From contig NZ_CBDCWX010000005.1 of assembly GCF_965223525.1 (NCBI RefSeq), forward strand, positions 323,414 to 387,413: a DNA stretch of 64,000 bases, in the 5' to 3' direction. The notes below the pieces were generated by a model, which was not told where the DNA came from, searched no databases, and was given only the letters and a program-made list of their open reading frames with translations. The stretch's first letter is position 1. Each line of letters opens with the position of its first letter. The position numbers and the translations under genes are program-made. Below are positions 1 through 64,000 of this stretch, one piece after another. Origin of the DNA: Candidatus Leptofilum sp. Lineage in GTDB: Bacteria; Chloroflexota; Anaerolineae; Promineifilales; Promineifilaceae.

Positions 1-720
1 AATGTTGTCCTCTACACGAATGATGGTCACTCTCCCGAAAGTTTACTGAGCCTGTTTCGCAGCCGAGATGTGGATGGTTTTGTCATTATCTGGAATCACG
101 TTCCGGCCACTTTTATTGATGTTTTGCTAGAGGCAAATGTTCCGTTCGTCATTCTGGGTCGTCGTGTAGAGCATGAGCAAGCTTCTTTCATAGCCCCGGA
201 CAATTACAATGGTGCGCGTACCCTCATGCAGCACCTTATTTCGTTAGGCCATCGGCGGATTGGCTTCACGACGCGCCCAACGATGGGCCACACTCATGAA
301 GATCGCTTTAATGCGTACAAAGATGCCCTCCACGAGGCAACCATCCCCTACGATCCCGATCTGGTTGTGGAAACGCAAATTGAATCCCGTAGCGGTTACC
401 ATGCTGCGAATCAATTGCTCGATCTGGCTGAACCGCCAACGGCCGTATTCGCTTTTCATGATTTTGTGGCCATAGACGCCCAGCAGGCCATTTTGGATCG
501 GGGTCTGCGTATTCCCCAAGATATTGCCCTGGCAGGTTTTGATGGGCTGCGTACCTCTCTTTTTACCTCTCCCCCCATTACCACCGTCAGCCAGCCCTTG
601 GCCCAAATTGGCCAGGAATCTGTTTTAACTTTGCTTCAACTCATCGAAGATGACACCCATCCCCCTATTCAAAAAACATTACCTGTAGAACTCATTATCA
701 GACAATCAACCGTTGCTTAA
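1..720 (+). CDS. LacI-family transcriptional regulator, effector-binding domain only (5' end lies outside the window)
   Basis: Frame 1 is open from base 1 to the stop at 718-720. The product aligns over its whole length with the C-terminal two thirds of the complete LacI-type protein at 13854-14867 (HRRIGFTTRP, EPPTAVFAxHDxVAxD, GLRxPQDIAxAGFD, PVELIxRQST). Confidence 0.85.
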   Translation, partial: NVVLYTNDGHSPESLLSLFRSRDVDGFVIIWNHVPATFIDVLLEANVPFVILGRRVEHEQASFIAPDNYNGARTLMQHLISLGHRRIGFTTRPTMGHTHEDRFNAYKDALHEATIPYDPDLVVETQIESRSGYHAANQLLDLAEPPTAVFAFHDFVAIDAQQAILDRGLRIPQDIALAGFDGLRTSLFTSPPITTVSQPLAQIGQESVLTLLQLIEDDTHPPIQKTLPVELIIRQSTVA

Positions 721-745
721 TCATTGTTAGGAAACAAACATTCAA

Positions 746-1846
746 ATGACAAAAGAAAAAGACCAGACTCACAGTCCTGCTCTTGATGCAGACCTTACGC
801 TGCACAGCAAAGGAAATTTAACACATCTCTTGTCCACTGATGGGCGCACCGAGCCTGCTATGCCCGGCTTTGCCCCCCAATTTCACGACATCGTTGATTA
901 CATTGTAAAAATAACGCATGAAATCTGGGAGGAGCGCGGCATCGGCCGTCTGTACGAATATTATGCCACCAACATGCGTATCCATACGTCCAATGGCGAC
1001 ATCTACACGCGAGATAAAGTCATCGAGGCCACCATTCAGGCATTGGCTGCCTTCCCAGATCGCCGCCTCTATGCAGATGAGGTCATTTGGGCCGGGGATG
1101 ATGAACAGGGGTACTTTTCCTCGCATCGCCTAACGCATGAAGGGCACAACTGGGGGCATTCATCTTATGGGCCACCGACTGGCAAAAAAGTTAGCTACCG
1201 CGCCATTGCCGACTGTGCCGTGGTTGAGGGTGTCATCGTGGAGGAGTGGCTAGTGCGGGATGAGCTATCTTTGGTATACCAGCTTGGCTTTGATGTGCAT
1301 GAAATGGCGCGTCAGTTGGCGCAGCAAGAGGCAGACGTTGGCCAACAATTTATGATTCCTTCTGAGCCAGAGCGGCTCAGAGGCCAGCTTCCACCCGAAG
1401 CCCCGCCTGCTGACTCACAAGCGTTTAACGTTGGCCGGTTTGTGGAGCGAGCCGTTCATGAAATTTGGAATTGGCGCTTATTGAACAAAGTTGATGATTA
1501 CTATACTCCGCAATTTGTTTGTGAATCTGCATCGGGGCGGCGTTTGTACGGCCGTAACCAATACCGCAACTATATCCTATCCCTACTTTCACCCTTCCCA
1601 GACATGGCCGTCTCTGTAGACCACTTTTGCGCCTTGCGCGACGGTCCAAACCGCTACCGTACTGCTACCCGCTGGATCATGACAGGAACCCACACAGGCC
1701 CAGGCATTTACGGTGTGCCCACCGGCCAACAAATTCGCATTATGGGCATTAGCCACCATCTGGTGGAAGACGGCAAATTCATCCAAGAATGGACACTGTT
1801 TGACGAGTTTGCCCTGCTCAAACAGCTTTACAAGCCATCATCGTAA
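746..1846 (+). CDS. two-domain SnoaL-like / NTF2-superfamily protein (ester-cyclase-like), function unknown
   Basis: 366 aa with two consecutive ~130-aa modules. Each has a SnoaL-type layout (THEIWEE / VHEIWNW helix, FPD motif, G.PTGK / GVPTGQ strand, EEW / QEW end). Starts 25 nt after the LacI stop. Confidence 0.65.
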   Translation: MTKEKDQTHSPALDADLTLHSKGNLTHLLSTDGRTEPAMPGFAPQFHDIVDYIVKITHEIWEERGIGRLYEYYATNMRIHTSNGDIYTRDKVIEATIQALAAFPDRRLYADEVIWAGDDEQGYFSSHRLTHEGHNWGHSSYGPPTGKKVSYRAIADCAVVEGVIVEEWLVRDELSLVYQLGFDVHEMARQLAQQEADVGQQFMIPSEPERLRGQLPPEAPPADSQAFNVGRFVERAVHEIWNWRLLNKVDDYYTPQFVCESASGRRLYGRNQYRNYILSLLSPFPDMAVSVDHFCALRDGPNRYRTATRWIMTGTHTGPGIYGVPTGQQIRIMGISHHLVEDGKFIQEWTLFDEFALLKQLYKPSS

Positions 1847-1952
1847 CAATCTGTTCGCTTAAATCACAAAGGAGGTGATGCTGCTCAGAAACACCCATTT
1901 ACAGAAGAGAAAGATGTTTTGCAAAAAATCCCATTTAGGAGAAGAAATTTCC

Positions 1953-3356
1953 ATGAAAAACACACGCTTATTCAGTTTACTTTTATTGCTTTTTGTTGCT
2001 CTATTCTTTGTGGCTTGTGGTTCATCTGGCGATGAAGGCAGTGAAGACACAGCCGAAGACACCACATCAGATGCCGATGTAACAGAAGATGCTGATGAAG
2101 AAATGGACGAAGAAATGGCCGAGGATATGGGGGTTGAAGGCTGCCATATCGCTGCCCCAGCCGAAGATACCGAAATCAATATGATTGGTTGGTCCTTCCC
2201 CATTACCGATTATTATGCCGAAGAGCTAGAAAAATGTAACGGCGTCGAAAATCTTACCGTTAACACAAATCTGCTTGCCTCGGCCGATGCCCAAGAGCAG
2301 GTACGTTTGGCTCTTTCCTCCGGCGGCGATTCCCCCTTTGATATTGTCCATTCGGCCAATTCTGGTGTAGCAGAATGGGCTGGTGAAGGTTGGATGATGC
2401 CCTTGAACGATCTGGTGGATAAATATTGGGATGAATATAACTTGGGCGACATTCCTGAAAAAGCTTGGGAAGGTGCCACAATTGACGGTCAAATCTACGG
2501 TGTACCGATTGTAGGTAACACGCTTCACCTCATTTACCGTCAAGACGTATTTGATGAGCTAGGTCTGGAAGTGCCAGAAACGTATGATGAAGTAATTGAG
2601 GTATGCAACGCAATTGGTTTGGACAATACCGATTGGGATATGCCGTTTACCATTAACCTTTCTGCTGGTTGGGCTTGGGAAATTGAGTTCTTCCAAATGC
2701 TGCGAGCTTATGGTGGTGATTTCCTCAATGAAGACAGCACGCCGGCCTTTAATGGAGAAGCAGGTGTCAACGCGGTTAATAAAATCATTGAGGTTGCTGA
2801 TGCCTGCATGGGTATAGATGGCTACACATTTAGCCTCAACGACCAAGAGGTTGCCTTACAGTTGGGCACCTTACCGTCCACAAACATGTGGGCCAGCCGA
2901 GCAGCCAACATGACCGATCCGGAACGTACCGATTTGGGTGATGTCATTGCTTATGCCCCGGCTCCCCGTGTTACGGCCGATAGCCCCCGTGCTGGCTCTG
3001 CCTGGAACGACTTCTACATGATTCCAGCCACAGCCACCAATGACCCCGATCTCATCTTCCGCATCATCATGGAAGCGGCTGATGAAGAAAGCCAGCAAGG
3101 TGCAGCTGCTGTGGGTATGACCACTCGCGTGGCGGTCGCCGAATTTGGCGGTCCTTATCTGCCAGCAGCCAACCAGACCCTGGCTGAAGGGATCGGCAGC
3201 TACGACAAAAATCCAGCGATCGGTATTGTGCGTGCCAAGCTAGGTGAATTCTTGCCGCTAATTGGTACGGGCGAGATGACTGTTCAAGAAGCACTTGATG
3301 CTGCCGCCGAAGCCTACATCGAAGAAGCAACAGCTCAGGGCTATATTGACGGATAA
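1953..3356 (+). CDS. ABC transporter solute-binding lipoprotein (family-1 / carbohydrate-type)
   Basis: ATG at 1953 is preceded by AGGAGAAG. It has a signal peptide with lipobox FFVAC-GSS and a long acidic tether (DEGSEDTAEDTT...DEEMDEEMAED), followed by a typical extracellular solute-binding fold. The track ORF start at 1875 is an in-frame upstream extension. About 80 percent identical by eye to 15138-16562. Confidence 0.85.
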   Translation: MKNTRLFSLLLLLFVALFFVACGSSGDEGSEDTAEDTTSDADVTEDADEEMDEEMAEDMGVEGCHIAAPAEDTEINMIGWSFPITDYYAEELEKCNGVENLTVNTNLLASADAQEQVRLALSSGGDSPFDIVHSANSGVAEWAGEGWMMPLNDLVDKYWDEYNLGDIPEKAWEGATIDGQIYGVPIVGNTLHLIYRQDVFDELGLEVPETYDEVIEVCNAIGLDNTDWDMPFTINLSAGWAWEIEFFQMLRAYGGDFLNEDSTPAFNGEAGVNAVNKIIEVADACMGIDGYTFSLNDQEVALQLGTLPSTNMWASRAANMTDPERTDLGDVIAYAPAPRVTADSPRAGSAWNDFYMIPATATNDPDLIFRIIMEAADEESQQGAAAVGMTTRVAVAEFGGPYLPAANQTLAEGIGSYDKNPAIGIVRAKLGEFLPLIGTGEMTVQEALDAAAEAYIEEATAQGYIDG

Positions 3357-3373
3357 CTAAGCTGAAGCATAAA

Positions 3374-3410
3374 GGAAGCAAGGGCTTCGCCCTTGCTTCC
3401 TATTTCTTTT
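3374..3410 (+). terminator. intrinsic terminator/attenuator between the binding-protein and permease genes
   Basis: GGAAGCAAGGGC-TTC-GCCCTTGCTTCC forms a perfect 11-12 bp stem, followed by TATTTCTTTT. Confidence 0.8.
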
Positions 3411-3456
3411 AACAGAAATATCCAGCAGCTTTTCGATAATAATCTAGGAGGAGAGT

Positions 3457-4320
3457 ATGAAACGAGATACGTTTTTCAGGTTTGCATCTCCCAGTATTCT
3501 TTTGATGACTTTGCTAATGGTTGTGCCACTGTTTATGGCCATTTGGTTGGGCATGAACTTCATGACCTTTACCAACATTACTGCGCCACAGTTTGTTGGC
3601 CTGCAAAATTATATTGACATATTGAATGATTCCCGCTTTTGGCAATCATTTCGCTTCACGGCTCTGTACGCAGCCATTGTTGTACCCGCAACTATTGTAG
3701 TGGGCTTTACCGTTGCCTTACTACTAGACCAGGTGTCGAGCTTTACCAGAGGCATTTACATGTCTATCTTTTTGCTGCCGTTCATTATTGTGCCAATTGT
3801 CGGGACGTTGATGTTTAAGCAGCTCTTTGAACCGTCGGGGCTCTTTACTTACCTTTATCAGACAATTTTGGAAACAAGATTTCGTTATACCGAAATAACT
3901 GTGAAGGTTTTGATTATTCTTTACGGTATTTGGTATGTGGCTCCCTTTGCCTTTGTGGTTTATTTTGCGGGTTTACAAACACTCTCTCAGGATCAAATTG
4001 AAGCGGCTTCAATTGATGGCGCAACCCGCTGGCAAAAAGTACGCCACATTGTCATTCCTCATTTGCGCTCGTTAACAATTCTGATTTTGCTATTTTCTAT
4101 CATGGACACGTACCGCGTTTTTGATAGTGTATTTGTTCTTTCGGAGCTAAACCCAATTTATAAGGCAGATACAGTAATGACGTATACATTCCAAACGGCG
4201 ATTACGGTACAGCGGCTGGGCAAGGCAAATGCAATGGCCATACTGACCGTCGTAGGAATTATGGTTGTCTTGATTCCAAACTTGATTCAAGCCTACCGTG
4301 AGCAAATTGAGGAGCGTTAA
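3457..4320 (+). CDS. ABC transporter permease (MalF/UgpA-like)
   Basis: 287 aa, about 6 TM helices, binding-protein-dependent transport inner-membrane signature region (...AASIDGATRWQKVRHIVIPHL...). GGAGGAG RBS. Confidence 0.85.
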   Translation: MKRDTFFRFASPSILLMTLLMVVPLFMAIWLGMNFMTFTNITAPQFVGLQNYIDILNDSRFWQSFRFTALYAAIVVPATIVVGFTVALLLDQVSSFTRGIYMSIFLLPFIIVPIVGTLMFKQLFEPSGLFTYLYQTILETRFRYTEITVKVLIILYGIWYVAPFAFVVYFAGLQTLSQDQIEAASIDGATRWQKVRHIVIPHLRSLTILILLFSIMDTYRVFDSVFVLSELNPIYKADTVMTYTFQTAITVQRLGKANAMAILTVVGIMVVLIPNLIQAYREQIEER

Positions 4321-4322
4321 AA

Positions 4323-5327
4323 ATGGAAAAGATAACAAACCCAATCGGCCGTACGTTTATTCATGTGGCTTTGATTCTGTTTGCCGTTTATAGCATTGTG
4401 CCTTTCTTTTGGACAACGTTACAGTCATTTAAGACGTTAAAAGACGCTAATTCGCGCACGCCACTCATCTTTTTTGAGCCAACTTGGGAAAACTATACAG
4501 AGTTATGGTTGCGCTCTGTGCCTGAGAACGGGGCAACAATTGGCTACTTTTTGTTGTTGGCTGTTGTGGTGCTAATTTGTTTACTTTTGTTTGCCCGCTA
4601 CCTGCCGGTGCGTAACAGCATTGTTTACCTCTTTGTAGTAGGTGCGTTTGCTGCTTTGCTGTGGGCAATTCCGCAATTGGTGGATATGGCTAAATTTTAC
4701 GACTACTTTATCAATACGATTATCGTAACGGTGGGGACGGTGGTTGTCTCGATTAGTATTGGCTGTCTGGCTGGGTATTCGTTGGCACGTTACATTGGCT
4801 TTGCCAGTGTCGTCATTTTGATTGCGGCACTTGCGTTCCGTGCCCTGCCTCGTTTGGCGTTTATTTTGCCATATTACTGGATTGGCACAGCCACGAATCT
4901 GCTGGACACGCATATTTTGGTCATCATCACGTTGGTAGCGGTTAATCAACCGTTTACCATTTGGATGCTTCGCAGTTTCTTCATGGACATTCCCAGAGAG
5001 CTTGAGGAGTCGGCTATGGTGGATGGTTGTAATCGCCTCACGGCGTTTACGCGAGTGATTATTCCTATAATGTGGCCGGGGATCATTTCAACGGCGTTGT
5101 TCTCATTGTTGCTAGCTTACAATGAGTTTTTGCTGGTGCGCTTGCTGACGCAAACAAATTGGACGCTGCCTGTGGCAATTTCGCGCTTTACCGGGGGTGA
5201 AGATCCACGCCATCTGACGCTGGCGGCGGCTTCGGCCGTTTCGGCCACGATTCCGATTGTGCTGGTCATTTTGTTCTTCCAGAAGAATTTGGTGAAGGGG
5301 TTGGCCGCTGGTGCAGTGAAAGGATAG
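4323..5327 (+). CDS. ABC transporter permease (MalG/UgpE-like)
   Basis: 334 aa polytopic protein with the EAA-type loop (ESAMVDGCNRLTAFTRVIIPIM). Starts 3 nt after the upstream permease, so the two are probably translationally coupled. Confidence 0.85.
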   Translation: MEKITNPIGRTFIHVALILFAVYSIVPFFWTTLQSFKTLKDANSRTPLIFFEPTWENYTELWLRSVPENGATIGYFLLLAVVVLICLLLFARYLPVRNSIVYLFVVGAFAALLWAIPQLVDMAKFYDYFINTIIVTVGTVVVSISIGCLAGYSLARYIGFASVVILIAALAFRALPRLAFILPYYWIGTATNLLDTHILVIITLVAVNQPFTIWMLRSFFMDIPRELEESAMVDGCNRLTAFTRVIIPIMWPGIISTALFSLLLAYNEFLLVRLLTQTNWTLPVAISRFTGGEDPRHLTLAAASAVSATIPIVLVILFFQKNLVKGLAAGAVKG

Positions 5328-5449
5328 GCACGGCCGTATCTTTGCAACGCATCTGGGTAGGTGAGGAGGTGATGCCTACAAGCAGACCCAAAGACAAATA
5401 GGTTCATGAAAGATTCGATAACTATAAACGTTTCAAGGAGAAAACAATA

Positions 5450-6772
5450 ATGAAAATCAGACCGTTTTTTATCGTAATTGCTGCTGTTGCTGGCCTTCTT
5501 GTCTTGATAGGAATGCAGTCCAATGCGGCCGCAGGTGAAGCTATGGCTGTTCAGGCAGTAGAGCAGGCGCGTGTCCCTGATCTGGAACCGCCCGCCATTC
5601 AATCATTGCGGCAGCTTTCGATTGATGGCTTGCGGGGACGGACGTTCCGTTCATCCATAACCATTGAAGAACAGCTTGGTGATGCTAATGGCTCATCAGA
5701 CTACTCTCAGTTTTATGGCGTGCCTTACTACAACACCTACATGGCCTCTTACCAATCTGATGGATTGAATGTCTATTCTCGCGTTGATATTCCCCCAACG
5801 GAAATGCCTGAAGATGGTTACCCCGTCATTGTTTTTGCTCACGGCTGGGTGGGTGCCAATGGTGCACCAGGCTACACGTTTAACTACGCCGCCAGCTCAT
5901 ACTATGGCGACATGCTGGATGCTTACGTGAAAGCGGGCTATGTTTTGCTCATGCCTGGCTTCCGTGGGCACGGTACGGTGAATGGTGTCCCTGCTGACGG
6001 CATTGAGTACATGCACGCCTATGACAATGGCAGCTACCTCTCGACGATGTTTTACGCCATTGATATTCTCAATTTGCTGGGTGGCGTTGATTCGCTTAAT
6101 CACACAGATTGGGCAGCCTGGGGTGCGGGCGATGTTAAAATTGATACCAGCCGCATCTACCTGACAGCACATTCGCAGGGTGGCGATGCTGCCTTCACCG
6201 CGCTGACTGTATCCAGCAGCCCGAAATTGGATAATCATTTTGCCGCTGCTTCGCTTTGGGCCAGCAGCATTGAAGGACGCATTGAGCAAGGCGCATTCCT
6301 GGGGCCGCAAGAGTGGAGTTCCGATGCCTGGACAGACCCAGCTTACTTCCCGCACATGCCATCATGGTGGGATCCCGCCTGGTCTACCGCCACCATCGAG
6401 GATGGCCTTGCCAACCGCAAAAACACGATGTACGACACCGTGAATACGTACGTGGCTGATCAAGGGAATGCTGAGCCAGATACAAATTCTCTGGTAGAGA
6501 TTATGGCTACGCTGGATGCGGCCAAGCATACGCAGTACATCACCGCACCGCTTGATCTTCATTATTCGGATATGGATCATTATTCAATTCCTGAGTGGAA
6601 TGAGGGGATTATGCGAAAACTACGTATGATGGGCGGTTCTGGGAATACGTATCTGTATGCGGGAAATTCGCATGAATTCAGGGTGATTGATGGCTGGTCG
6701 CCTGTCGGCGCTGAGGCTGGGCGCGACCTAGCAATTGAGCGAACAATTGCACTCTTCAATGACACGCAATAA
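5450..6772 (+). CDS. secreted alpha/beta-fold hydrolase (esterase/peptidase-like)
   Basis: N-terminal signal peptide, oxyanion-type VIVFAHGW, nucleophile elbow AHSQGG. AAGGAGAAAA RBS. Confidence 0.6.
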   Translation: MKIRPFFIVIAAVAGLLVLIGMQSNAAAGEAMAVQAVEQARVPDLEPPAIQSLRQLSIDGLRGRTFRSSITIEEQLGDANGSSDYSQFYGVPYYNTYMASYQSDGLNVYSRVDIPPTEMPEDGYPVIVFAHGWVGANGAPGYTFNYAASSYYGDMLDAYVKAGYVLLMPGFRGHGTVNGVPADGIEYMHAYDNGSYLSTMFYAIDILNLLGGVDSLNHTDWAAWGAGDVKIDTSRIYLTAHSQGGDAAFTALTVSSSPKLDNHFAAASLWASSIEGRIEQGAFLGPQEWSSDAWTDPAYFPHMPSWWDPAWSTATIEDGLANRKNTMYDTVNTYVADQGNAEPDTNSLVEIMATLDAAKHTQYITAPLDLHYSDMDHYSIPEWNEGIMRKLRMMGGSGNTYLYAGNSHEFRVIDGWSPVGAEAGRDLAIERTIALFNDTQ

Positions 6773-6793
6773 CGTTCTTTACGTTTTTACAGT

Positions 6794-8131
6794 ATGGTAA
6801 AACATGTAGAGTTAGCCAGACGGAACAAGCAGTTCACCCTGACATCCTGGCAGACCCAAAATGGCTGGCGGCCGGTTAGCATGGCGCGAGCCGACGACGT
6901 CTACTTTTGGGACGCCAACGGTAAGCGCTACCTGGATTGGTCGTCTCAACTGGTTAATGTCAATATCGGCCACAACAACCAGCAGGTAATTGAAGCCATT
7001 CAGGCTCAGGCGGCTAAGTTAACCTATGCTATGCCGTCACTCGCCACCGAACCACGTGCTCGGCTGGGTGAACTGCTGGCAGAGATTACACCGGATGGTT
7101 TAACCAAGAGCTTTTTTACGCTAGGCGGCGCGGACGCTATTGAAAATGCCATGAAAATTGCCCGGCTGGTAACGGGTCGGCAAAAAATATTGACCCGTTA
7201 CCGGGCTTATCATGGGGGCACCTTTGGCGCGATGTCTGCTGGCGGCGATCCGCGCCGTCTGGCTAATGAACCGGGCGTCCCCTGGATTGTGCGTTTGCAC
7301 GATCCTTATGCTTACCGCAGCCCGCTTTATGACGGCCGTACCCGCGACGAAGGCGATCAGGCTCTCATTGACCAAATGGCCGAGACAATTGAGTATGAAG
7401 GCGCAGACAATATCGCCGCCGTTTTGTTGGAAGGTTACAGCGGCACCAGCGGTATCATTCAAGGCGAGGAGGTTTATTGGCGGGGCGTGCAGCAGTTGTG
7501 TGACCAGTACGGTCTGCTGCTGATTATTGATGAGGTGATGAGTGGATACGGCCGTACCGGCAAATGGTTTGGCGTTAATCATTATCCCTGGGTCAAGCCA
7601 GACATCATAGTGATGGCCAAGGGGCTTACCAGCGGCTATGTACCGCTGGGCGCAGTAGTGGTTTCCGAGCAGATTGCGGCTCATTTCGAAGAAAATGTAC
7701 TGTGGGCGGGCCTGACATACAGCGCACATGCCCTGGCCTGTGCCGCCGCCATTGCCAATATCCAGGTCTATCGCCAGCAAGATCTGATTGAGCGTTCAGC
7801 CAAAATGGGTCAGGTGCTGCGAGCGGGGCTGGTTGCTCTGGCCGAAAAACATCCCTCCGTGGGCGATATTCGCGGTACCGGGCTGCACCAGGTTATTGAA
7901 CTGGTCAAAAATCGGGACAGCCGCGAGCCGTTTAGCCCCTTTAACCAGCCCATGACCGAACCGATGCAAAAGGTAGCGGCTTTGCTGCTAGCCAATGGGA
8001 TGAGTACCTTTGTCAAATGGAACTGGATTTTCTGCACGCCGCCGCTCATCATCAATGAAGCTCAAATTGAAGAAGGATTAAGCATTATTGACAAGGCACT
8101 GATGCTGGCCGACGCCTATACCGAGGGCTAA
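6794..8131 (+). CDS. class III (omega-type) PLP-dependent aminotransferase
   Basis: 445 aa. DEVMSGYGRTGKWFG and VMAKGLTSGY (PLP lysine) motifs and the overall layout of the beta-alanine/taurine-pyruvate aminotransferase group. Confidence 0.85.
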   Translation: MVKHVELARRNKQFTLTSWQTQNGWRPVSMARADDVYFWDANGKRYLDWSSQLVNVNIGHNNQQVIEAIQAQAAKLTYAMPSLATEPRARLGELLAEITPDGLTKSFFTLGGADAIENAMKIARLVTGRQKILTRYRAYHGGTFGAMSAGGDPRRLANEPGVPWIVRLHDPYAYRSPLYDGRTRDEGDQALIDQMAETIEYEGADNIAAVLLEGYSGTSGIIQGEEVYWRGVQQLCDQYGLLLIIDEVMSGYGRTGKWFGVNHYPWVKPDIIVMAKGLTSGYVPLGAVVVSEQIAAHFEENVLWAGLTYSAHALACAAAIANIQVYRQQDLIERSAKMGQVLRAGLVALAEKHPSVGDIRGTGLHQVIELVKNRDSREPFSPFNQPMTEPMQKVAALLLANGMSTFVKWNWIFCTPPLIINEAQIEEGLSIIDKALMLADAYTEG

Positions 8132-8141
8132 CTGTTCAGTT

Positions 8142-8405
8142 ATGAACAATCAAGAAAACAAAAGAAACGTGTGGGACTTTTGGCAAAAATTGAACCATGT
8201 TGAACCTGATCCTTGAGGAGTATGAAGATTTTCATCAACGGCCGTGGCTGCATAGTTTTGGGAATCGCGGTCTCTACACCGCTGGGGGACGCTCACTTGG
8301 CATGAGCGATGTCCCATTTTCAATCCATCGGGGGAAGTTTCTGGGGATTCCGGCAACGGGGAAACTAATGACGATGCGTGATTTCGATTGGTACCGACTC
8401 CTAGA
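8142..8405 (+). pseudogene. degraded SnoaL-like gene remnant (frameshifted, truncated)
   Basis: ATG 8142 opens MNNQENKRNVWDFWQKLNHVEPDP and stops at 8214-8216. A different frame (track ORF 8197-8460) continues with ...GKFLGIPATGKLMTMRDFDWYRL. This matches the WLGIPGTGKRVRVRYMDFWRI strand of the neighbouring intact paralogs. The total is too short for a full domain. Confidence 0.45.
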
Positions 8406-8468
8406 GGTGACAGTCACCCAAAAACGGCCTCGTTGCAGCAAACCCCTCTGGTCAAGGTGACTGTCACC
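8406..8468. repeat. paired 13-bp palindromes GGTGACAGTCACC (8406-8418) and GGTGACTGTCACC (8456-8468), copy A
   Basis: The second box is the exact reverse complement of the first. Start-to-start spacing is 50 bp. The same architecture is at 9501-9563. Lies 31 nt upstream of ATG 8499. Confidence 0.8.
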
Positions 8469-8498
8469 TGAACAGTTACATTTGAGGAAAAAGCTCTT

Positions 8499-8993
8499 AT
8501 GGCAGCAGAAAAAAACAAGCAGCTTGTTGACGATATGTACAAGGGCTTGAATGAAAATATATTGGGGCTAATGCACCGTTACTGGAAAGAAGAGATGGTT
8601 TGGGAAGGGCCAGCAGGCATTGGCACGATGAACGGCATTGATGAGTTTGAGCATGTTTATCGGAAACCCTTCATCAAGGCATTCCCAGACAAACATGCCA
8701 CGGACATTGTTCGCATTGCGGAAGGGGATTGGGTGGCTGCGACTGGGTACCAAGACACGACTTTTGCCGAGGATTGGCTGGGCATTAAAGCCAGCGGCCA
8801 AAAAATTCGGATGCGTTACATGGATTTTTGGCGGGTGGAAGTAGATGAAGAAACTGGGAACCGAAAATTAGCAGAAAATCTGGTTTTAATTGATATTTTG
8901 GGTGTTCTTGAGCAATGTGGTTACGACATCAGCAAAGTTCTGCACTTCGTTGGCTCCAAACCACCAGAATTCTTTAACCAAATTGAGGAATGA
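8499..8993 (+). CDS. single-domain SnoaL-like / NTF2-superfamily protein
   Basis: 164 aa. Family motifs W.GPAGIG, FPDK, WLGI..SG.K.R.RYMDFWR, ENLVLIDILGVLEQ are shared with 9005-9505 and with the C-terminal halves of 9598-10605, 11823-12836 and 16730-17713. Confidence 0.75.
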   Translation: MAAEKNKQLVDDMYKGLNENILGLMHRYWKEEMVWEGPAGIGTMNGIDEFEHVYRKPFIKAFPDKHATDIVRIAEGDWVAATGYQDTTFAEDWLGIKASGQKIRMRYMDFWRVEVDEETGNRKLAENLVLIDILGVLEQCGYDISKVLHFVGSKPPEFFNQIEE

Positions 8994-9004
8994 GGGTCGG
9001 TTTA

Positions 9005-9505
9005 ATGGCAGCAGAAGAAAACAAGAAAATTGTTGATGCCATGTATGAGAGTATGAACTTGAACCAAGTTGGCGCGATGAAAAAACATTGGACGCGCAAT
9101 ATGGTTTGGGATGGTCCGGCCGGAATTGGCAAGAAGCATGGTGTAGAACAGTTTGAGGAGGAAGTGAGACGGCCGTTTATTCACGCTTTCCCCGATAAAG
9201 TGGGCGAAGATATCGTGCGCCTCTTTGAGGGAGATTGGGTTGCTGGCACAGGATTTCAGGACGCAACTTTTGCCCATGACTGGTTAGGGATTCCAGGCAC
9301 AGGGAAGCGTGTGCGCGTCCGCTATATGGATTTCTGGCGCATCGAAGAAGAAGACGGCGAACGCAAATTGGCAGAAAATTTCGTTCTGATCGACATCCTC
9401 GGCGTGCTGGAGCAGGCTGGATACGATGTGAAAAAAGTGTTGCAGTTTGTAGGGTCAAAACCCCCTGAATTTTTTGAAAATATAAGCACTCAGTCCCAGA
9501 GGTGA
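9005..9505 (+). CDS. single-domain SnoaL-like / NTF2-superfamily protein (tandem paralog)
   Basis: MAAEENKKIV start parallels MAAEKNKQLV of the upstream gene. Same motif set. The stop TGA lies inside palindrome 9501-9513. Confidence 0.75.
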   Translation: MAAEENKKIVDAMYESMNLNQVGAMKKHWTRNMVWDGPAGIGKKHGVEQFEEEVRRPFIHAFPDKVGEDIVRLFEGDWVAGTGFQDATFAHDWLGIPGTGKRVRVRYMDFWRIEEEDGERKLAENFVLIDILGVLEQAGYDVKKVLQFVGSKPPEFFENISTQSQR

Positions 9506-9563
9506 CAGTCACCTAAAGACGGCTCCATTCTAGCAAACCCTTCTGAGCAGGGTGACTGTCACC
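9501..9563. repeat. paired 13-bp palindromes GGTGACAGTCACC (9501-9513) and GGTGACTGTCACC (9551-9563), copy B
   Basis: Boxes, the AGAG / TGAAC flanks and the 37-nt spacer length are identical to copy A. The spacer sequence is only about 70 percent identical. Lies 35 nt upstream of ATG 9598. Confidence 0.8.
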
Positions 9564-9597
9564 TGAACGATTACTTGAAAATATTGAATAAATTGAC

Positions 9598-10605
9598 ATG
9601 ACAGATATTCACCAACAAAACAAGCAGCTAATTGGAAAATTGAGAGCCGCCCTTTACGATATTGACAAAGGACAGCTAAAAAAACAGCTTAACGCGGTCT
9701 TTGCGCCGGATTGTGAGATTCATCTGGCCTTTCCATTTGAAGATTTGGCTGGGCCGGATGGGTTGTTTGACGTGTATCGGGGGTTGTTAACGGCCGTTCC
9801 CGACCTAGAGCGCCGCGACTTCATCTTCATGGCAGGGGAGGCGAACGGGAACAACTGGGTCGGCTGCGGTGGGCATTACCTGGGCGTGTTTGAGAATCAT
9901 TGGCTCGACATTCCCCCCACCCAGCACCTCATCTTCATGCGCTACCACGAGTTTTTCCGCATCGAAGAGAACCAAATAGTCGAGATGCAAGCCCTGTGGG
10001 ACATTCCCCAACTCATGATGCAGGCTAACGCCTGGCCGATGACCCCTAGCCTTGGCGTAGAGTGCGTCGTGCCCGGCCCAGCTTTGCAGGACGGCATCAT
10101 CACCGCCCCCTATGACCAAGCAAAAGCAGATGCCAGCGTCAAGCTGGTGCTGGATATGGTGTCGGGCTTGAAAAACTCGCCGCAGGGCGCAGAAGCGATG
10201 GAATTGGATCGTTTCTGGCATCCAAAAATGAACTGGTACGGCCCCGCTGGTATTGGCTCTGCCCGCCGCTTATCCGGCTTCCGCAACTGGCATCAAATCC
10301 CGTTCTTAAAAGCAATGCCCGATCGCACCATCATTTTGGACAAAGGCGTTCTCTTTGGCGACGGCAATTACGTCGGCTTCACCGCCTGGCCCGTCATGTG
10401 GATGACGGTCAGCGGTGATGGCTGGCTGGGCATTGCGCCTGCCAATCAAAAGATAACGATGCGTAGTCTTGATTTTTGGCGTTGTGAAAACGGCCGTTTG
10501 CGGGAAAATTGGGTGTTGGTTGATATTTTAGACGTTTATAACCAGCTTGGCGTGGACGTATTCTCTCGAATGAAGGAATTGACCGTTGCTCGACAGCCAA
10601 TTTAA
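9598..10605 (+). CDS. two-domain SnoaL-like / NTF2-superfamily protein
   Basis: 335 aa. The C-terminal module carries W.GPAGIG ... LDFWRCENGRLRENWVLVDILDVYNQLG. The N-terminal module is a more diverged copy (HEFFRIEENQIVEMQALWD). Confidence 0.7.
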   Translation: MTDIHQQNKQLIGKLRAALYDIDKGQLKKQLNAVFAPDCEIHLAFPFEDLAGPDGLFDVYRGLLTAVPDLERRDFIFMAGEANGNNWVGCGGHYLGVFENHWLDIPPTQHLIFMRYHEFFRIEENQIVEMQALWDIPQLMMQANAWPMTPSLGVECVVPGPALQDGIITAPYDQAKADASVKLVLDMVSGLKNSPQGAEAMELDRFWHPKMNWYGPAGIGSARRLSGFRNWHQIPFLKAMPDRTIILDKGVLFGDGNYVGFTAWPVMWMTVSGDGWLGIAPANQKITMRSLDFWRCENGRLRENWVLVDILDVYNQLGVDVFSRMKELTVARQPI

Positions 10606-10645
10606 CCATTCAGTTTTCACACCACAAGGGGAGCACAAAAAGTTC

Positions 10646-11809
10646 ATGAAGACCTTTAAATTTCAAGCCAGAACCAAACTTATTGCTGGCTCAGATTCCG
10701 TGCAGCAGCTTGGCACAGAAGTCAATGCTTTAGGCGTCAACCACGTTATGGTCGTAACGGATAAGGGAATTGTGGCTGCCGGGCTGTTGGATAGGGTGAT
10801 ACGGCCGTTGCACAAGAGTAACATCACGACAACCATCTTTGATCAAGTCGAACCAAACCCAACGGATGAGACTGCCCTGATTGGCGGCCGCCGGGCCAAA
10901 GAGGAAGGCGCACAAGCCATTGTGGCCGTAGGTGGCGGCAGTCCAATTGATGCCGCCAAAGCCATTGCCGTCATGGCAGCCAATGATGGCCCATTTGTGG
11001 ATTATTGTGGCGCTGGGGGTGATCCATGGCCCAACACACCATTGCCTATCATTGCCATACCCACAACGGCCGGAACAGGTGCCGAGGTCAGTGCCGCCGG
11101 CATGATCAACCTGCCAAAACAAGGGCGAAAAGTAGACATCTTTGGCGCCTCTATTTTGCCCAAGGTCGCCATTGCCGATGCCAACCTGACGATCACGCTG
11201 CCACCCCATTTAACCGCGTGGACGGGGGTTGATGCGTTAAGCCACGCAGTCGAAGCTTACCTCTGCCTTGGTGCAAATCCTGTATCCGATGCCATAGCAG
11301 AAGGGGCAATAAGCTTGGTTGCCCAAAATATTCGTCGCGCTTATGAAGATGGCAGCGACCTGGAAGCACGACACAATATGTTGGTTGCCAGTGCCATGGC
11401 GGTCATCGCTGCCTCAGGCGCAGCGGGACTCGGCGTGATCCACTCATTGGCCCAAACCCTGGGTGGGTTTTACGACTTGCCCCACGGTCTGACTATTGCC
11501 GTCTGTTTTGCTGATGGACTGGCTTATAATCTACCTGCTTTGCCGGAAAAGTATGCCACAATCGCTCGTTTGCTAGGGGTAGATACCAGCAAAATGACAA
11601 TGGAAGAGGCCGCAAAATCTGTGATTCCAGCAATCCGTCAGCTCAATGCAGACTTAAATATTACCGATACGTATGCCAGCATGAAGGTTCAGCGGGATGA
11701 TATACCCCAATTAGCGGAGTATGCCTTGCTGGATGGGTGTACACCAACCAATCCCCGTCCCTTGACACACGAAGCATTTGTCGAGTTGTTTGAAGGCGGT
11801 TTTTATTAA
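10646..11809 (+). CDS. iron-containing (group III) alcohol dehydrogenase
   Basis: MKTFKF start with AAGGGGA RBS. GGGSPIDAAKAIA dinucleotide motif, metal-binding His cluster region (DALSHAVEAY, HSLAQTLGG...PHG). Confidence 0.85.
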   Translation: MKTFKFQARTKLIAGSDSVQQLGTEVNALGVNHVMVVTDKGIVAAGLLDRVIRPLHKSNITTTIFDQVEPNPTDETALIGGRRAKEEGAQAIVAVGGGSPIDAAKAIAVMAANDGPFVDYCGAGGDPWPNTPLPIIAIPTTAGTGAEVSAAGMINLPKQGRKVDIFGASILPKVAIADANLTITLPPHLTAWTGVDALSHAVEAYLCLGANPVSDAIAEGAISLVAQNIRRAYEDGSDLEARHNMLVASAMAVIAASGAAGLGVIHSLAQTLGGFYDLPHGLTIAVCFADGLAYNLPALPEKYATIARLLGVDTSKMTMEEAAKSVIPAIRQLNADLNITDTYASMKVQRDDIPQLAEYALLDGCTPTNPRPLTHEAFVELFEGGFY

Positions 11810-11822
11810 TTTGGTGAGACAT

Positions 11823-12836: not shown

Positions 12837-12845
12837 TTATGCACC

Positions 12846-13733
12846 ATGCACACCAAAGCCCTGCCTTACATTTTGCTGCTCAGTCTGTTTTGGGGAACCA
12901 ATGTGGTTGCCAGCCGCTTTGGCATTGGCGAATTTGATCCCTATCTTTTCGTCACCCTCCGTTTAGCAATAGCCACCCTGTTTTTTGTACCCATCTTGCT
13001 CCTAAACCAGGGCCAGCTGCCGACAAACCGAGAATTATGGCAAAAAGCGGCCGTTAGTGGTGTGCTGGGGGTTGCCATTCCCATCCCCACCTTTATTTTG
13101 TCATTGCAATACCAATCAAGCGGCGTTGCCAGCATCTATGTGACCACTCTGCCCGTGATGATTGTCATTGCCGCTCATTTTCTACTGCCCGATGACCCCA
13201 TAACGCGCCACAAAGCCTTGGGAGTGGCTTTGGCACTGTGCGGCGCACTCTTTTTGGCTTTGCGTGGCGAAAGCGGCTTGGCCGATGTAGGTCGTGCCAG
13301 TCCATTGGGCTTTCTTCTGGTCATGGTTGGTTTGGTTTCAGAAGTGTTCAATACGATATTTGTCCGCCTTCAGATGCAAAAGTTAGACCCGATGCAGGTA
13401 ACGGCCGTTCGCCTACTGGTCGCTGCAATTATCGTTTTATTCGTCACGCTGCTGTTGGGTGATTTTTCACTTGCAAAAGTAACGTTAAATGGTTATTTCT
13501 CGTTGGCTTACGCCGCACTTATTGGTGCATTAGGTGGTCAATTTATGGCCTTCTACGTCCAGCGACGATTTGGCGCCACAGCCTTTTCTCTCACCTCCTT
13601 TATGGTGCCGGTCATCGCCACGATTTTTGGCGCACTCCTGCTTGGTGAAATTGTGACATGGGCAATGGGTCTTGGCGTTTTGCTGATTGGCAGCGGCTTG
13701 TATCTGCTCAATAGGCGTAACTTTGCTCACTAA
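12846..13733 (+). CDS. EamA/DMT-family transporter
   Basis: 295 aa, about 10 TM helices arranged as two EamA-like halves. Confidence 0.75.
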   Translation: MHTKALPYILLLSLFWGTNVVASRFGIGEFDPYLFVTLRLAIATLFFVPILLLNQGQLPTNRELWQKAAVSGVLGVAIPIPTFILSLQYQSSGVASIYVTTLPVMIVIAAHFLLPDDPITRHKALGVALALCGALFLALRGESGLADVGRASPLGFLLVMVGLVSEVFNTIFVRLQMQKLDPMQVTAVRLLVAAIIVLFVTLLLGDFSLAKVTLNGYFSLAYAALIGALGGQFMAFYVQRRFGATAFSLTSFMVPVIATIFGALLLGEIVTWAMGLGVLLIGSGLYLLNRRNFAH

Positions 13734-13772
13734 ATGCGCCTGTTAATCCTGTCTCGAGTTCCTTTTTTAACC

Positions 13773-22751: not shown

Positions 22752-22754
22752 AAA

Positions 22755-60040: not shown

Positions 60041-60131
60041 CTCGGCTGCGGTCGGCGTCTCGCCGTACCGCTTACTATTTCATGCTGAATCTATGTAAAT
60101 TGGGGCTAAATGGTGTGGGAAACGGCCGTTT
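60041..60131 (+). repeat. 91-bp direct repeat, left copy
   Basis: 87 of 91 positions are identical to 61594-61684, with no indels. Contains a GC hairpin (GCGGTCGGCG..CGCCGTACCGC) and ends in GGGAAACGGCCGTTT. Confidence 0.9.
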
Positions 60132-61593: not shown

Positions 61594-61684
61594 CTCGGCT
61601 GCGGTCGGCGTCCCGCCGCACCGCTTACTATTTCATGCTGAATCTATGTAAATTGGGGCTAAATGTTGGGGGAAACGGCCGTTT
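61594..61684 (+). repeat. 91-bp direct repeat, right copy
   Basis: See 60041-60131. Confidence 0.9.
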
Positions 61685-63685: not shown

Positions 63686-63795
63686 AATCGCATCTTTACC
63701 CGTGCCAGCGGGAATGTTACAATGTAGTTCATTACATAACATTTGCCAACGTCGTACTCAATAGTTATCAACCACTGATGGCATCACCTCAGGAA

Positions 63796-63843
63796 GTAAT
63801 TATGTAATTGGGTAATTACCTAGTTACTCAATTACCCAATTGC
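63796..63843. repeat. heptamer-periodic hairpin element (GTAATTG/GGTAATT type)
   Basis: GTAATTGGGTAATT / AATTACCCAATTGC arms (13 of 14), followed by an A7 run. Confidence 0.65.
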
Positions 63844-63885
63844 AAAAAAACAAACAGGTGATTGCCACGAAAATTGCAGAAGTAT

Positions 63886-64000
63886 ATGAGCAATATTTAC
63901 AACCCCGCCCTGTTTGTTAACCAGGAACGCAAATTTCTGGGCTTTCAAAAACTGCTGCGGCCAGAAACACGCCAAGCGGTGATGCTAATTCAGGCTACCA
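63886..64000 (+). CDS. 5' end of an unidentified gene running off the window
   Basis: ATG 63886 opens a frame (MSNIYNPALFVNQERKFLGFQKLLRPETRQAVMLIQAT) that stays open to the window edge. Confidence 0.3.
   Translation, partial: MSNIYNPALFVNQERKFLGFQKLLRPETRQAVMLIQAT

Follow-up and report, generated by a model that had tools for sequence, protein, structure and literature searches.

The described element closest to the octamer analysed here is HIP1 (GCGATCGC), the highly iterated palindrome (HIP) of cyanobacteria, beside which alternate HIPs are known (GGGATCCC, TCGATCGA, CAGGCCTG, GCCGGC and others; Elhai, 2015, PMC4390886; Xu et al., 2018, PMC5861425). Its published density is 0.2-2.73 per kb, 16-317-fold above a second-order Markov null (PMC5861425). 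Neisseria DUS and Pasteurellaceae USS are likewise short lineage-specific words, found about once per kb in genes and spacers alike, that arose by point mutation, distort peptide content, are conserved among related species and consist of a core with a weaker flanking consensus, with molecular drive as the favoured explanation; they are, however, non-palindromic 9-12-mers read by a competence receptor, and tend to be depleted from phages and from islands of recent acquisition, whereas the present octamer, ACGGCCGT, is enriched in phages. REP, BIME and MITE elements and Chi are also abundant short signals, and REPs are palindromic too, but REP and MITE elements are insertions of 20-150 bp between genes, Chi lacks symmetry, has a strand bias and is enriched only few-fold, and none of these is written into coding sequence at saturation.

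The 8-bp palindrome ACGGCCGT, which reads alike on both strands, occurs exactly 102 times (1.6 per kb) in the window, by which we mean the whole 64-kb stretch of DNA analysed, and this is the number reached by hand tally in an earlier note on this DNA (Table 1). Observed-to-expected ratios are 97 on base composition and 122, 61 and 28 under Markov models of order 1, 2 and 3 respectively, and dinucleotide shuffles of the window gave a mean of 0.75 copies with a maximum of 5. As with HIP1, this is a GC-rich octameric palindrome whose density, roughly 1-3 per kb, exceeds second-order Markov expectation tens to hundreds of times, and it lies in non-coding DNA and in all phases of coding DNA; unlike HIP1, it belongs to the Chloroflexota (class Ardenticatenia) and has an unrelated core without GATC or CGATCG. 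Genes hold 87% of the copies, at 1.61 per kb, and the 13 intergenic copies correspond to 1.49 per kb of non-coding DNA. Density varies along the window; in cyanobacteria, low HIP1 density is a sign of recent acquisition or strong constraint (PMC3025956). We found no earlier description of ACGGCCGT in the literature searched.

Table 1. Coordinates of the octamer copies and of associated features in the window
Feature	Coordinates	Strand	Details
ACGGCCGT copies, part 1	1..64000		Starts: 439, 1548, 5330, 7332, 7548, 8238, 9169, 9790, 10490, 10801, 13401, 14411, 14577, 16930, 17049, 17181, 17493, 17863, 18356, 18613, 20113, 20570, 20684, 20875, 21093, 21630, 22110, 22178, 22337, 22782, 22937, 23044, 23105, 23754
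ACGGCCGT copies, part 2	1..64000		Starts: 24708, 24923, 25034, 25226, 25660, 26083, 26338, 26602, 26813, 27130, 27374, 27628, 27742, 27836, 28319, 28679, 28850, 30097, 30307, 30595, 32293, 33371, 34250, 35313, 36222, 36584, 37288, 37329, 37426, 37954, 38472, 39809, 39882, 41156
ACGGCCGT copies, part 3	1..64000		Starts: 41697, 42548, 43258, 43357, 44212, 44685, 46238, 46750, 47942, 48137, 48400, 49424, 50091, 50415, 51069, 51441, 52140, 52930, 53073, 53694, 53870, 55851, 56670, 57226, 58208, 58457, 58734, 59840, 60122, 61675, 62347, 62862, 62964, 63306
Sparsest stretch (4-kb bins)	1..16000		13 copies/16 kb, 0.8 per kb; sugar ABC transporter, aminotransferase and SnoaL-like genes, including a paralogous substrate-binding protein pair
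Densest stretch (4-kb bins)	20001..28000		28 copies/8 kb, 3.5 per kb; ordinary metabolic, transporter and sigma-factor genes (Pfam)
Syntenic block with relative L041 (Ardenticatenaceae MAG HK-STAS-CHLO-22)	21618..43197		Used for orthologous-site test
Perfect 16-bp extended palindrome GGAAACGGCCGTTTCC	48133..48148		Within minus-strand gene 47857-48294; read E-T-A-V-S
Second perfect 16-bp extended palindrome GGAAACGGCCGTTTCC	48396..48411		Within minus-strand gene 48378-48782
SARP/AfsR-like NB-ARC/TPR regulator gene	50037..53126	+	Seven copies (50091, 50415, 51069, 51441, 52140, 52930, 53073): six T-A-V, one Y-G-R
91-nt intergenic segment (family D8)	60041..60131		Ends in copy 60122
Second copy of 91-nt intergenic segment (family D8)	61594..61684		Ends in copy 61675; 96% identity

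Such abundance could in principle arise as a by-product, whether of composition, of codon usage or of a preference for certain amino acids (Thr-Ala-Val, for example), with no cause at the DNA level, and higher-order Markov expectations do come near the observed count (58 at order 5 and 95 at order 6), but this agreement is circular, since the motif itself dominates the sub-words. A synonymous-codon shuffle that holds every protein sequence and each gene's codon usage fixed (n=500) predicts 9.2 +/- 2.7 copies (maximum 19) where 89 are observed in genes, an excess of 9.7-fold, which is about the order of magnitude over a codon-aware null by which the earlier note proposed to judge the element. 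All three codon phases are occupied, as had been noticed there, and they yield three unrelated peptides: 45 copies read ACG GCC GTn (T-A-V), 28 nAC GGC CGT ([NDHY]-G-R) and 16 nnA CGG CCG Tnn (x-R-P-x). T-A-V is seen 45 times against 7.7 expected (5.8-fold) while its five permutations stand at about 1x, and all 45 use the one motif-encoding codon combination, for which codon usage predicts 11.6%; [NDHY]GR is seen 30 times against 10.8 expected, with 28 motif-encoded. Outgroups (95,000 codons) have T-A-V at 0.7x expectation, none of it motif-encoded, and the GC content of motif-rich contigs ranges from 43 to 67%. Where the protein sequence allows the octamer it is almost always present (89 of 93 synonymous opportunities, about 96%), and all seven peptides that had been quoted for the regulator gene are found in its translation, so that the motif is written into protein sequence. 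The synonymous shuffle, the T-A-V codon use and the outgroup T-A-V refute the by-product reading, whose probability we regard as negligible. The saturated synonymous sites, the T-A-V excess without excess of its permutations, the equal density in spacers and the palindromic flanks there mean that the copies are kept by a force on the DNA sequence itself, not on protein, and this force raises Thr-Ala-Val and x-Gly-Arg in the proteome 3-6-fold.

The octamer is embedded in a graded consensus, GGaA-ACGGCCGT-TtCC, of 16 bp in full, and the same palindromic preference is seen around the 13 intergenic copies. The flank bias that had been described is borne out (AACGGCCGTT is found 37 times), the perfect 16-mer GGAAACGGCCGTTTCC is present twice, and the one-mismatch forms listed as frequent, ACGGCCGC (11), TCGGCCGT (8) and GCGGCCGT (8), are the commonest NCGGCCGN variants; to read them as decaying or not-yet-converted copies is plausible. 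One-mismatch variants in the window pile up at the first and last base (32 at positions 1/8 versus 7, 2 and 3 inside), as those of HIP1 likewise do (Elhai, 2015, PMC4390886), so that in both elements the 6-bp core, here CGGCCG, is the stricter unit. A weaker palindromic flank extension is also common to the two, although that of ACGGCCGT reaches 16 bp, with GG and CC at +/-3-4, and its outer bases, A...T, are not those predicted by Elhai's G-methyl-C ratchet.

Beyond +/-4 nt the flank information is about zero, and a repeat search of the window returned just motif-centred pseudo-families of 25-40 nt and no long repeat family, which disposes of the possibility, raised beforehand, that all copies lie inside one longer repeat. 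A dispersed mobile micro-repeat (REP, MITE or very small mobile element) inserting into the genome finds its support in the two copies that had been offered as intergenic examples; they are indeed intergenic, but they are not mutually independent, since both lie in the duplicated 91-nt segment. It is at odds with the absence of similarity beyond +/-4 nt and with the placement of most copies in genes, in frame. Moreover, where an orthologous position lacks the motif, the alignment has no gap and the sequences differ by substitutions only, deeper relatives having QYV, SSI, RAR, NIT or FGA where the window has TAV. A mobile micro-repeat is ruled out for all copies but the D8 pair, and as an account of the element it is vanishingly improbable. 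The copies are independent and, as with HIP1, were formed in situ without indels, by synonymous and non-synonymous point substitutions.

The source of the window is a clade of Ardenticatenia MAGs to which the octamer is limited, its density declining with phylogenetic distance. Across 16.7 kb aligned with L041 at 79% nucleotide identity, 35 of 40 window motifs (87.5%) are conserved, against 20% of control octamers, and 35 of the 37 L041 motifs are conserved in the window; orthologous HIP1 sites, too, are conserved much more often than control palindromes. Where the amino acid is conserved, the codon is identical in 63 of 65 cases inside motifs versus 49% outside, and silent sites within ACGGCCGT are thus frozen between species. 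Enrichment of the CGGCCG core reaches further than that of the octamer: the hexamer stands at 3.5-7x in L001-L007, L010 and L041, also where octamers are few, and at about 1x among Anaerolineae further removed. Sister lineages have alternate palindromes, L010 CCGGCCGG/GCCGGCCG and L008 GCCGGC, as do relatives in the case of HIP1.

Contigs recognized as phage by a terminase, portal, major head, tape measure or head protease gene have the motif at 2-4 per kb, and they match the host in phase ratios, in flanks and in variant spectrum (196 one-mismatch variants at positions 1/8 versus 26, 21 and 14 inside, in viral contigs). With 3.6-3.7 per kb, some phage or mobile-element contigs lie above the 1.6-2.2 per kb seen in the host. 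The force on ACGGCCGT works equally in spacers and on phage genomes. Taken jointly, the conclusions on origin, DNA-level action, peptide bias, frozen silent sites and reach into phages are ones we hold with high confidence. Near-complete synonymous saturation and phage co-enrichment are shown for ACGGCCGT, and we found neither documented for HIP1. Phage structural modules at host-like or higher density could also mean that the motif, probably modified, is a protective self-mark that keeps a host nuclease or defence system off the DNA, both resident DNA and successful phages being selected for many copies in a palindromic, orientation-free analogue of Chi-type protection. One motif-rich phage contig encodes a predicted large C5-cytosine methyltransferase (L134:1903-3717) with about six repeated target-recognition-like segments, which suggests that cytosine methylation may matter in this host-phage system. 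We nevertheless consider a self-mark improbable: we could tie no defence or nuclease gene to the motif, Chi-like signals lack symmetry and are only modestly enriched, and protection would not require every synonymous opportunity to be filled.

As the best explanation we take ACGGCCGT to be a highly iterated palindrome specific to one lineage, on the chromosome of an uncultured member of the Ardenticatenia (Chloroflexota); to this account as a whole, with the drive described below, we give somewhat more than an even chance. A hypothetical symmetric (dimeric) sequence-specific protein would read it as double-stranded DNA, its contacts probably strongest at the CGGCCG core, weaker at the outer A/T and weakest at the GG/CC three to four bases out. 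Such a reader would most likely fill the genome by molecular drive, in which recognition of the site biases mismatch correction or gene conversion, and not by organismal selection on one site at a time. Near-saturation at about 1.6 per kb is hard to reach by selection, since the marginal fitness value of a further site, with thousands already there, would be minute; a per-site conversion bias is independent of copy number. Most plausibly the bias would depend on methylated cytosine in the CGGCCG core, an idea already put forward for HIP1, and would turn near-cognate sequences into cognate ones and mend losses in every replicon replicating in these cells.

We favour this methylation and repair mechanism only tentatively, at rather less than an even chance. 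Very-short-patch repair in enterobacteria (Vsr/Dcm), in which methyltransferase-linked mismatch correction raises its own word, CCWGG, and depletes near-cognates, is to our knowledge the sole well-established mechanism of this kind; in E. coli it acts only on T:G mismatches at methylated C, its skew is modest compared with 60-100x for ACGGCCGT, and it leaves the outer A/T and the GG/CC flanks unexplained. Counting against the drive, the 64-kb window and the host loci yielded no gene for a methyltransferase, a Vsr-type enzyme or another nuclease, whereas cognate methyltransferases (DmtA/DmtC) are known for HIP1; nor do the near-variants show an excess of C>T (deamination-type) changes. GCGGCCGC, with G...C outer bases, has 5 copies against 102 in the window, so Elhai's exact ratchet does not fit. 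The graded 16-bp consensus resembles what a dimeric DNA-binding protein would recognize more than it does the 4-8 bp target of a classical methyltransferase, and mobile contigs denser than the host fit selection in mobile DNA no less well than they fit passive drive.

These last points lead to a reading that we consider possible though unlikely, in which the 16-bp palindrome is the binding site of an abundant protein and natural selection keeps each copy, the candidates being a nucleoid or chromosome-organizing factor or a self-DNA signal for uptake or recombination like DUS/USS; a role of HIP1 in transformation has recently been proposed. The consensus extends to spacers, orthologous sites are strongly conserved with frozen silent positions, density is like that of DUS/USS at about 1-2 per kb, mobile DNA would be expected to be dense if it gains from the signal, and pairs less than 60 bp apart are mildly scarce (10 versus 19.8 expected). 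Spacing is otherwise exponential over the 64 kb (KS p = 0.42), however; 89/93 saturation would require that every one of thousands of sites be under appreciable selection, an assumption not easily defended; phages are injected, not taken up, so uptake-driven build-up should spare them; and neither a binding protein nor competence genes were identified. Conservation and saturation alone do not separate biased conversion from purifying selection.

In summary, ACGGCCGT is about 100-fold above chance in an uncultured Chloroflexota lineage and its phages, and the earlier reading of it as HIP1-like with a different sequence holds for every HIP property that sequence can address (density, placement, origin, conservation, variant spectrum and phylogeny). 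It is a real HIP-type element, and HIP1, long unexplained in cyanobacteria, has in it a counterpart outside that group.

The octamer palindrome ACGGCCGT, called hyper-abundant in the earlier note on the strength of a hand tally of 102, occurs exactly 102 times in the 64,000 bases of the window (1.59 per kb; G+C content 51%). The commonest 6-, 8- and 10-mers of the window are all sub-words or extensions of this motif, and each of the remaining palindromic octamers has five copies at most. One hundred dinucleotide-preserving shuffles gave a mean of 0.75 copies and a maximum of 5, and the observed/expected ratio is 97 under a base-composition null and 122, 61 and 28 under Markov models of order 1, 2 and 3 respectively. 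Markov orders 5-6 were rejected as circular, since their expectation nears the observed count only through sub-words that consist largely of the motif. The most conservative null was a shuffle of synonymous codons within each gene, which keeps all proteins and per-gene codon usage, applied to a set of 54 genes called approximately by a crude longest-ORF rule (86% coding). Against 9.2 +/- 2.7 copies in these shuffles (maximum 19 in 500) there are 89 inside the genes, so that the roughly ten-fold excess over a codon-aware null that the earlier note had set as its threshold is reached. A composition artefact is refuted, and both the density and the order-2 ratio exceed those used to define a highly iterated palindrome (HIP), namely a palindromic 6-8-mer with at least 0.2 copies per kb and at least 16 times its second-order Markov expectation (Xu et al., 2018).

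The copies were said to lie in intergenic DNA and in all three codon phases of genes, and they do: 13 are intergenic, 45 are read as ACG GCC GTn (T-A-V), 28 as nAC GGC CGT ([NDHY]-G-R) and 16 as nnA CGG CCG Tnn (x-R-P-x), with equal densities in coding and non-coding DNA (1.61 versus 1.49 per kb). The effect on the proteome is the strongest single result of the analysis. All 45 T-A-V tripeptides of the window are spelled by the motif, where codon usage predicts 11.6%, and T-A-V itself stands at 5.8 times its amino-acid-composition expectation, its five permutations being at 0.65-1.16 times theirs. The tripeptide [NDHY]GR is found 30 times (10.8 expected), 28 of them motif-encoded, and the motif is actually present at 89 of the 93 octamer positions that the proteins permit. 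In 95,000 codons of motif-free Anaerolineae, T-A-V is at 0.7 times expectation and is never motif-encoded. These figures show that the motif shapes the proteins and not the reverse. Across 14 orthologous genes, motif density showed no significant trend with protein conservation (rho = -0.19, p = 0.52).

When the two half-sites of each copy are folded together (n=204), A is preferred at -1 (58%) and -2 (42%) and G at both -3 and -4 (54% at each), with p values from 1e-7 to 1e-24, and the information content is about zero from -5 outward. The 13 intergenic copies show the same preference, which is therefore not a codon effect. The complete site is a graded 16-bp palindrome, GGaA-ACGGCCGT-TtCC, in keeping with the flank bias toward AACGGCCGTT described previously, of which there are 37 copies. 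The closest relative sampled (L041, Ardenticatenaceae MAG HK-STAS-CHLO-22) and two further relatives (L001/L002) retain GG/CC at +/-3-4, the octamer-adjacent base in the latter pair being C...G, not A...T.

A single longer dispersed repeat as the source of the copies, the alternative raised in the earlier note, was not found: shared sequence ends within +/-4 nt, and a repeat search of the window gave no longer repeat carrying the motif apart from one duplicated 91-nt segment, which holds both of the intergenic copies cited there. As is required of a HIP, copies in coding and non-coding DNA share no sequence beyond the motif. Their spacing is close to exponential (KS p = 0.42), with no pairs less than 41 bp apart in the window where 6.3 were expected (P = 0.001); pooling the window with six relatives (L041, L001-L004 and L006) gives 10 pairs closer than 60 bp against 19.8 expected by Poisson, a mild deficit. 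The scarcity of close pairs could reflect site exclusion, or chance. The quasi-periodic distribution listed among HIP criteria concerns periods of 10-90 kb.

Several other repeats were seen in the window (see table). The 91-nt duplicate could be a shared terminator or 3' element, the 27-nt hairpin pair is probably formed by intrinsic-terminator-like elements common to both loci, and the 81-nt repeat looks like an operator-type site. In the 16 kb around the lipoprotein paralogs the motif is sparser than anywhere else in the window (0.8 per kb). The heptanucleotide arrays, with units ACCGATT/ACGGATT (x5), CCAGTCT (x3), AGAGACT (also as a 14-mer x2 plus an inverted copy), CCAATCT, TTCAGTA/TACTGAT and GATTACC, some in inverted pairs, resemble the STRR heptamers known from filamentous cyanobacteria, a second cyanobacteria-like repeat feature of this genome.

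Coordinates of features in the window, and in other loci where a locus is named
Position	Strand	Feature	Observation
1875-3356; 15138-16562		Paralogous sugar-type ABC substrate-binding lipoproteins	Acidic N-terminal linkers; 13.2 kb apart; 73-86% nucleotide identity over 300-nt blocks
8399-8479; 9494-9574		81-nt repeat (D11, D20)	83% identical; palindrome GGTGACAGTCACC twice
8499-8993		Small gene	First 81-nt copy lies upstream
8990-9505		Tandem paralog	Second 81-nt copy follows
9598-10605		Gene	Second 81-nt copy lies ahead
21.6-43.2 kb		Region syntenic with L041	16.7 kb aligned, 79% identical
22689-22758; 40859-40880; 41499-41561; 46626-46655; 54192-54278; 57764-57835		Short tandem heptanucleotide arrays	Mostly intergenic
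26961-26987; 30798-30824		27-nt hairpin-forming sequence TGTCATTCCCGTGAAAACGGGAATCCA and complement (I7)	93% complementary; downstream of genes
30307		Old motif site	Common to L001/L002
30875-32212	minus	Asparaginyl-tRNA synthetase (AsnRS)	Query for relatives
39882		Old motif site	Common to L004
48133; 48396		Perfect 16-mers	Both present, as the earlier note reported
50037-53126		Gene with seven motif copies	All copies and the seven peptides quoted for them present
60041-60131; 61594-61684		91-nt intergenic segment, twice (D8)	96% identical; each ends in GGGAAACGGCCGTTT
60250-61581	minus	PD40 beta-propeller-like gene	A 91-nt copy just 3'
61729-62715	minus	Alpha/beta hydrolase gene	A 91-nt copy just 3'
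L005, 1-10374		Relative	CGGCCG 3.95 per kb, G...A/C flanks
L008, 1-21335		Relative	GCCGGC 88 vs 24-43 expected
L010, 1-21335		Relative (Anaerolineae MAG H21_261)	GCCGGCCG 33 vs 2.5 expected; CCGGCCGG 19 vs 2.1 expected
L134, 1903-3717	minus	Phage C5-cytosine DNA methyltransferase (IMGVR_UViG_3300021517_000012)	604 aa; PF00145; phrog_116
L272, 689-1634		Metagenome contig Ga0056108_1069641	Tandem 12-mer satellite (ACGGCCGTGTAC)n with octamer

The history of the sites can be read by comparison with L041. The motif itself may have anchored the blastn alignments to a slight extent. In these alignments the orthologous position carries a perfect copy for 35 of the 40 motifs of the window and for 35 of the 37 in L041, as compared with 20% of control octamers overall and 24% of those with six G+C. 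Where the amino acid is conserved, T, A, G, R and P have the same codon in 63 of 65 cases within motifs and in 49% elsewhere (854/1,728, Val codons included); only 14 of 20 Val codons inside motifs are identical, as expected for a codon whose third base lies outside the octamer. Conservation above both control octamers and the same codons elsewhere is a property of HIPs, as is spread by substitution and not insertion. The alignment of orthologs, advised previously as a check for directed substitution, is gap-free and contains substitutions only, deeper orthologs having QYV, SSI, SGI, RAR, NIT, ETS and FGA at the TAV positions of the window; old sites are few (see table). One-mismatch forms, noticed before as frequent, number 32 at positions 1/8 versus 7, 2 and 3 at the inner pairs in the window, and interior variants are at or below expectation in the pooled clade data, so that one-nucleotide deviants are biased to the first and last positions, outside the core, as they are for HIPs. 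A deamination signature of m5C was considered and rejected: C>T at motif position 2 makes up 6 of the 12 interior variants in the window, and the pooled data are not above expectation. A mobile micro-repeat is likewise refuted. We are highly confident that the motif is an element of the HIP type, which substitutions create and which is maintained at the level of DNA.

Using the AsnRS of the window as query, we collected 80 loci from species-representative genomes, each relative being sampled by no more than 21 kb around this one marker gene. The near relatives are all MAGs labelled Ardenticatenaceae, Promineifilaceae or Anaerolineae (Chloroflexota, class Ardenticatenia, NCBI taxonomy), several of which appear from their isolate names to derive from activated-sludge projects, apparently ones that used long reads. 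The density of ACGGCCGT drops with AsnRS distance, from 2.2 per kb in L041 (92% identity) through 2.1 and 1.7 in L002 and L001 (87% each), 1.1 in L003 (83%) and 0.7 in L004 (81%) to 0.47, 0.19 and 0.08 in L006, L005 and L007 (79% each), and is about zero from L008 (73%) outward, through about 70 more loci of Chloroflexota. Enrichment of the hexamer core CGGCCG reaches further than that of the octamer, at 3.5-7 times dinucleotide expectation in L001-L007, L010 and L041 and about 1 times in more distant lineages; the enriched set includes lineages in which the octamer is rare and the outer bases differ, with GCGGCCGA/GC in L005 and CCGGCCGG/GC in L010. The other GC-rich palindromes of the sister lineages L010, L008 and L005 (see table) parallel the 'alternate HIPs' of cyanobacteria. 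Motif-rich metagenome contigs span 43-67% G+C, so that enrichment does not depend on base composition. The metagenome pattern scan for the motif returned mostly short contigs, and one very dense match, L272, owes its density to a satellite that has nothing to do with the dispersed motif and is a false positive of this motif-based harvest.

Many viral contigs, at densities of 1.5-4 copies per kb, came out of a scan of IMG/VR for two motif copies 20-50 bp apart. Since these and the metagenome loci were picked by motif, their densities are upper-biased, the patterns of phase, flank and variants being unaffected. Several of the matches are genuine tailed-phage modules: L190, which encodes a terminase large subunit, portal, head morphogenesis and major head proteins, has 31 copies in 15 kb at 50.7% G+C, and others carry a terminase (L136, 1.94 per kb), a tape measure (L196/L138, from one 65-kb contig, 2.7/3.6 per kb), a head protease (L137, 1.72 per kb) and a tail spike (L184, 2.52 per kb). 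A 158-kb set of such viral contigs holds 382 copies (384 including copies within 8 nt of a locus end), with a phase ratio of 147:115:49 and a flank consensus that are the same as in the window; 148 of their 158 T-A-V tripeptides are motif-encoded, and one-mismatch variants again concentrate at the outer bases (196 versus 26, 21 and 14 inside). Of the longer contigs collected, L098/L154 (IMGVR_UViG_3300033417_000002, 100 kb) has the highest dispersed density, at 3.7 per kb; it encodes FtsK/SpoIIIE-like, MoxR-type AAA and lytic transglycosylase/peptidase proteins without clear capsid genes, and is perhaps not a phage but a conjugative element or some other mobile one. The methyltransferase on the motif-rich contig L134 (CGGCCG, 4 per kb) has about six repeats in its variable region (VDEALATQTT, VDGALPTQTT, VDEALATVTA, VDEPLRTFHT, VDDPLATFAA and VDREMGTVTT), which suggest that the enzyme is multispecific and has several target-recognition domains.

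These data demonstrate that a sequence-specific, strand-symmetric force acting at the DNA level makes and preserves the site, prevailing almost entirely over the choice of synonymous codons and in part over that of amino acids. Host chromosomes, spacers and phages are all subject to it, and its strength falls from CGGCCG through the outer A/T to the GG/CC flanks. We suggest that a dimeric protein would read the site, and that a molecular drive, in which recognition of the site biases mismatch correction or gene conversion, would create it. Drive is favoured over site-by-site selection because thousands of near-saturated sites cannot each carry a meaningful fitness increment, and Dcm/Vsr very-short-patch repair is an established precedent for such a repair bias. 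That the drive is linked to methylation or repair is a tentative proposal. The HIP-specific version, Elhai's methylation-directed repair ratchet (PMC4390886), in which the outer bases evolve to G...C and so give G-methyl-C at the methylated C of the core, does not fit in its exact form, as there are five copies of GCGGCCGC against 102 of ACGGCCGT, with outer preferences of A >> G and T > C. HIPs are also characterised by a DNA methyltransferase for the motif or its core in the same genome and by methylation of the site. No methyltransferase, Vsr or nuclease genes were found in the window or the host-clade loci (regex on all ORFs; Pfam on 30 window proteins). The regex scan also covered motif-rich viral DNA (about 200 kb) and metagenome contigs rich in the motif (about 100 kb), and its only methyltransferase matches were phage-borne and putative, on the viral contigs L134 (C5), L199 (N4/N6, weak) and L138 (N6 fragment). 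A search of the window for an explanation at the RNA level found no tRNA or Rfam family, and SOS-box mimicry (GAAC-N4-GTTC) was discarded, its only two matches both being motif copies and not meaningful.

The main rival to drive, which we consider slightly less likely than a methylation- or repair-linked drive, is that the copies are selected because a nucleoid, recombination or uptake protein binds them; the 16-bp consensus and the very high motif densities in mobile DNA fit this reading. HIP1, the cyanobacterial type of HIP, has been linked to transformation in recent reports; a purely uptake-driven origin is at odds with the enrichment of the motif in phages, which do not enter by uptake. 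That the site serves as a protective self-mark seems improbable.

As the earlier note had proposed, the element behaves like HIP1 with a different sequence, and all HIP properties that could be tested are found in ACGGCCGT. It is not HIP1 itself, because sequence, core and phylum all differ: HIP1 is GCGATCGC with a CGATCG/GATC core in cyanobacteria, the motif belongs to Chloroflexota, and CGATCG occurs only six times in the window. The DNA uptake sequences of Neisseria and Pasteurellaceae (DUS/USS) are asymmetric 9-12-mers, read in competence and depleted in phages and foreign DNA, whereas the motif is a perfect palindrome and phage-enriched, and so is not of this class. REP/MITE elements, which are conserved over more than 20 bp, intergenic and of insertion type, were also rejected, the copies here having no longer unit and being made by substitution. 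The open-access literature on HIPs treats the phenomenon as cyanobacterial, and full-text searches of open-access papers gave no account of a genomic motif ACGGCCGT, or of a HIP in Chloroflexota or otherwise outside cyanobacteria, a mention elsewhere being possible. This may perhaps be the first HIP system documented outside cyanobacteria, independently evolved around CGGCCG, with a 16-bp symmetric site and shared with the phages of its hosts.

To our knowledge HIP1 has had no accepted function or origin in 30 years, and the comparative work on it that we know of is confined to one phylum, in which motif, methyltransferases and phylogeny are confounded. The present motif is an independent replicate, in Chloroflexota, with a different core and in a graded clade, in which some lineages have the hexamer only, others the octamer at 0.5-2 per kb, and sister lineages other palindromes, and it constrains the models: the outer A/T contradicts a G-methyl-C ratchet, synonymous-site saturation favours drive, and phage enrichment speaks against an uptake-only origin. 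There are practical consequences too, in that the motif measurably reshapes proteins through excess T-A-V and x-G-R, which bears on annotation and alignment, and that the octamer, as a strong compositional barcode, could help to bin activated-sludge filament MAGs, assign phages and spot horizontally acquired DNA. If the independent origin is true, HIPs would arise generally and repeatedly wherever such a sequence-specific drive or system of self-recognition acts, and would not be a cyanobacterial peculiarity. The Ardenticatenia would then allow an independent test of the competing HIP1 hypotheses, and the responsible gene could be sought by phyletic correlation along their natural gradient, which begins with lineages that have CGGCCG alone, passes through sister lineages with alternate palindromes and ends in genomes saturated with the octamer.
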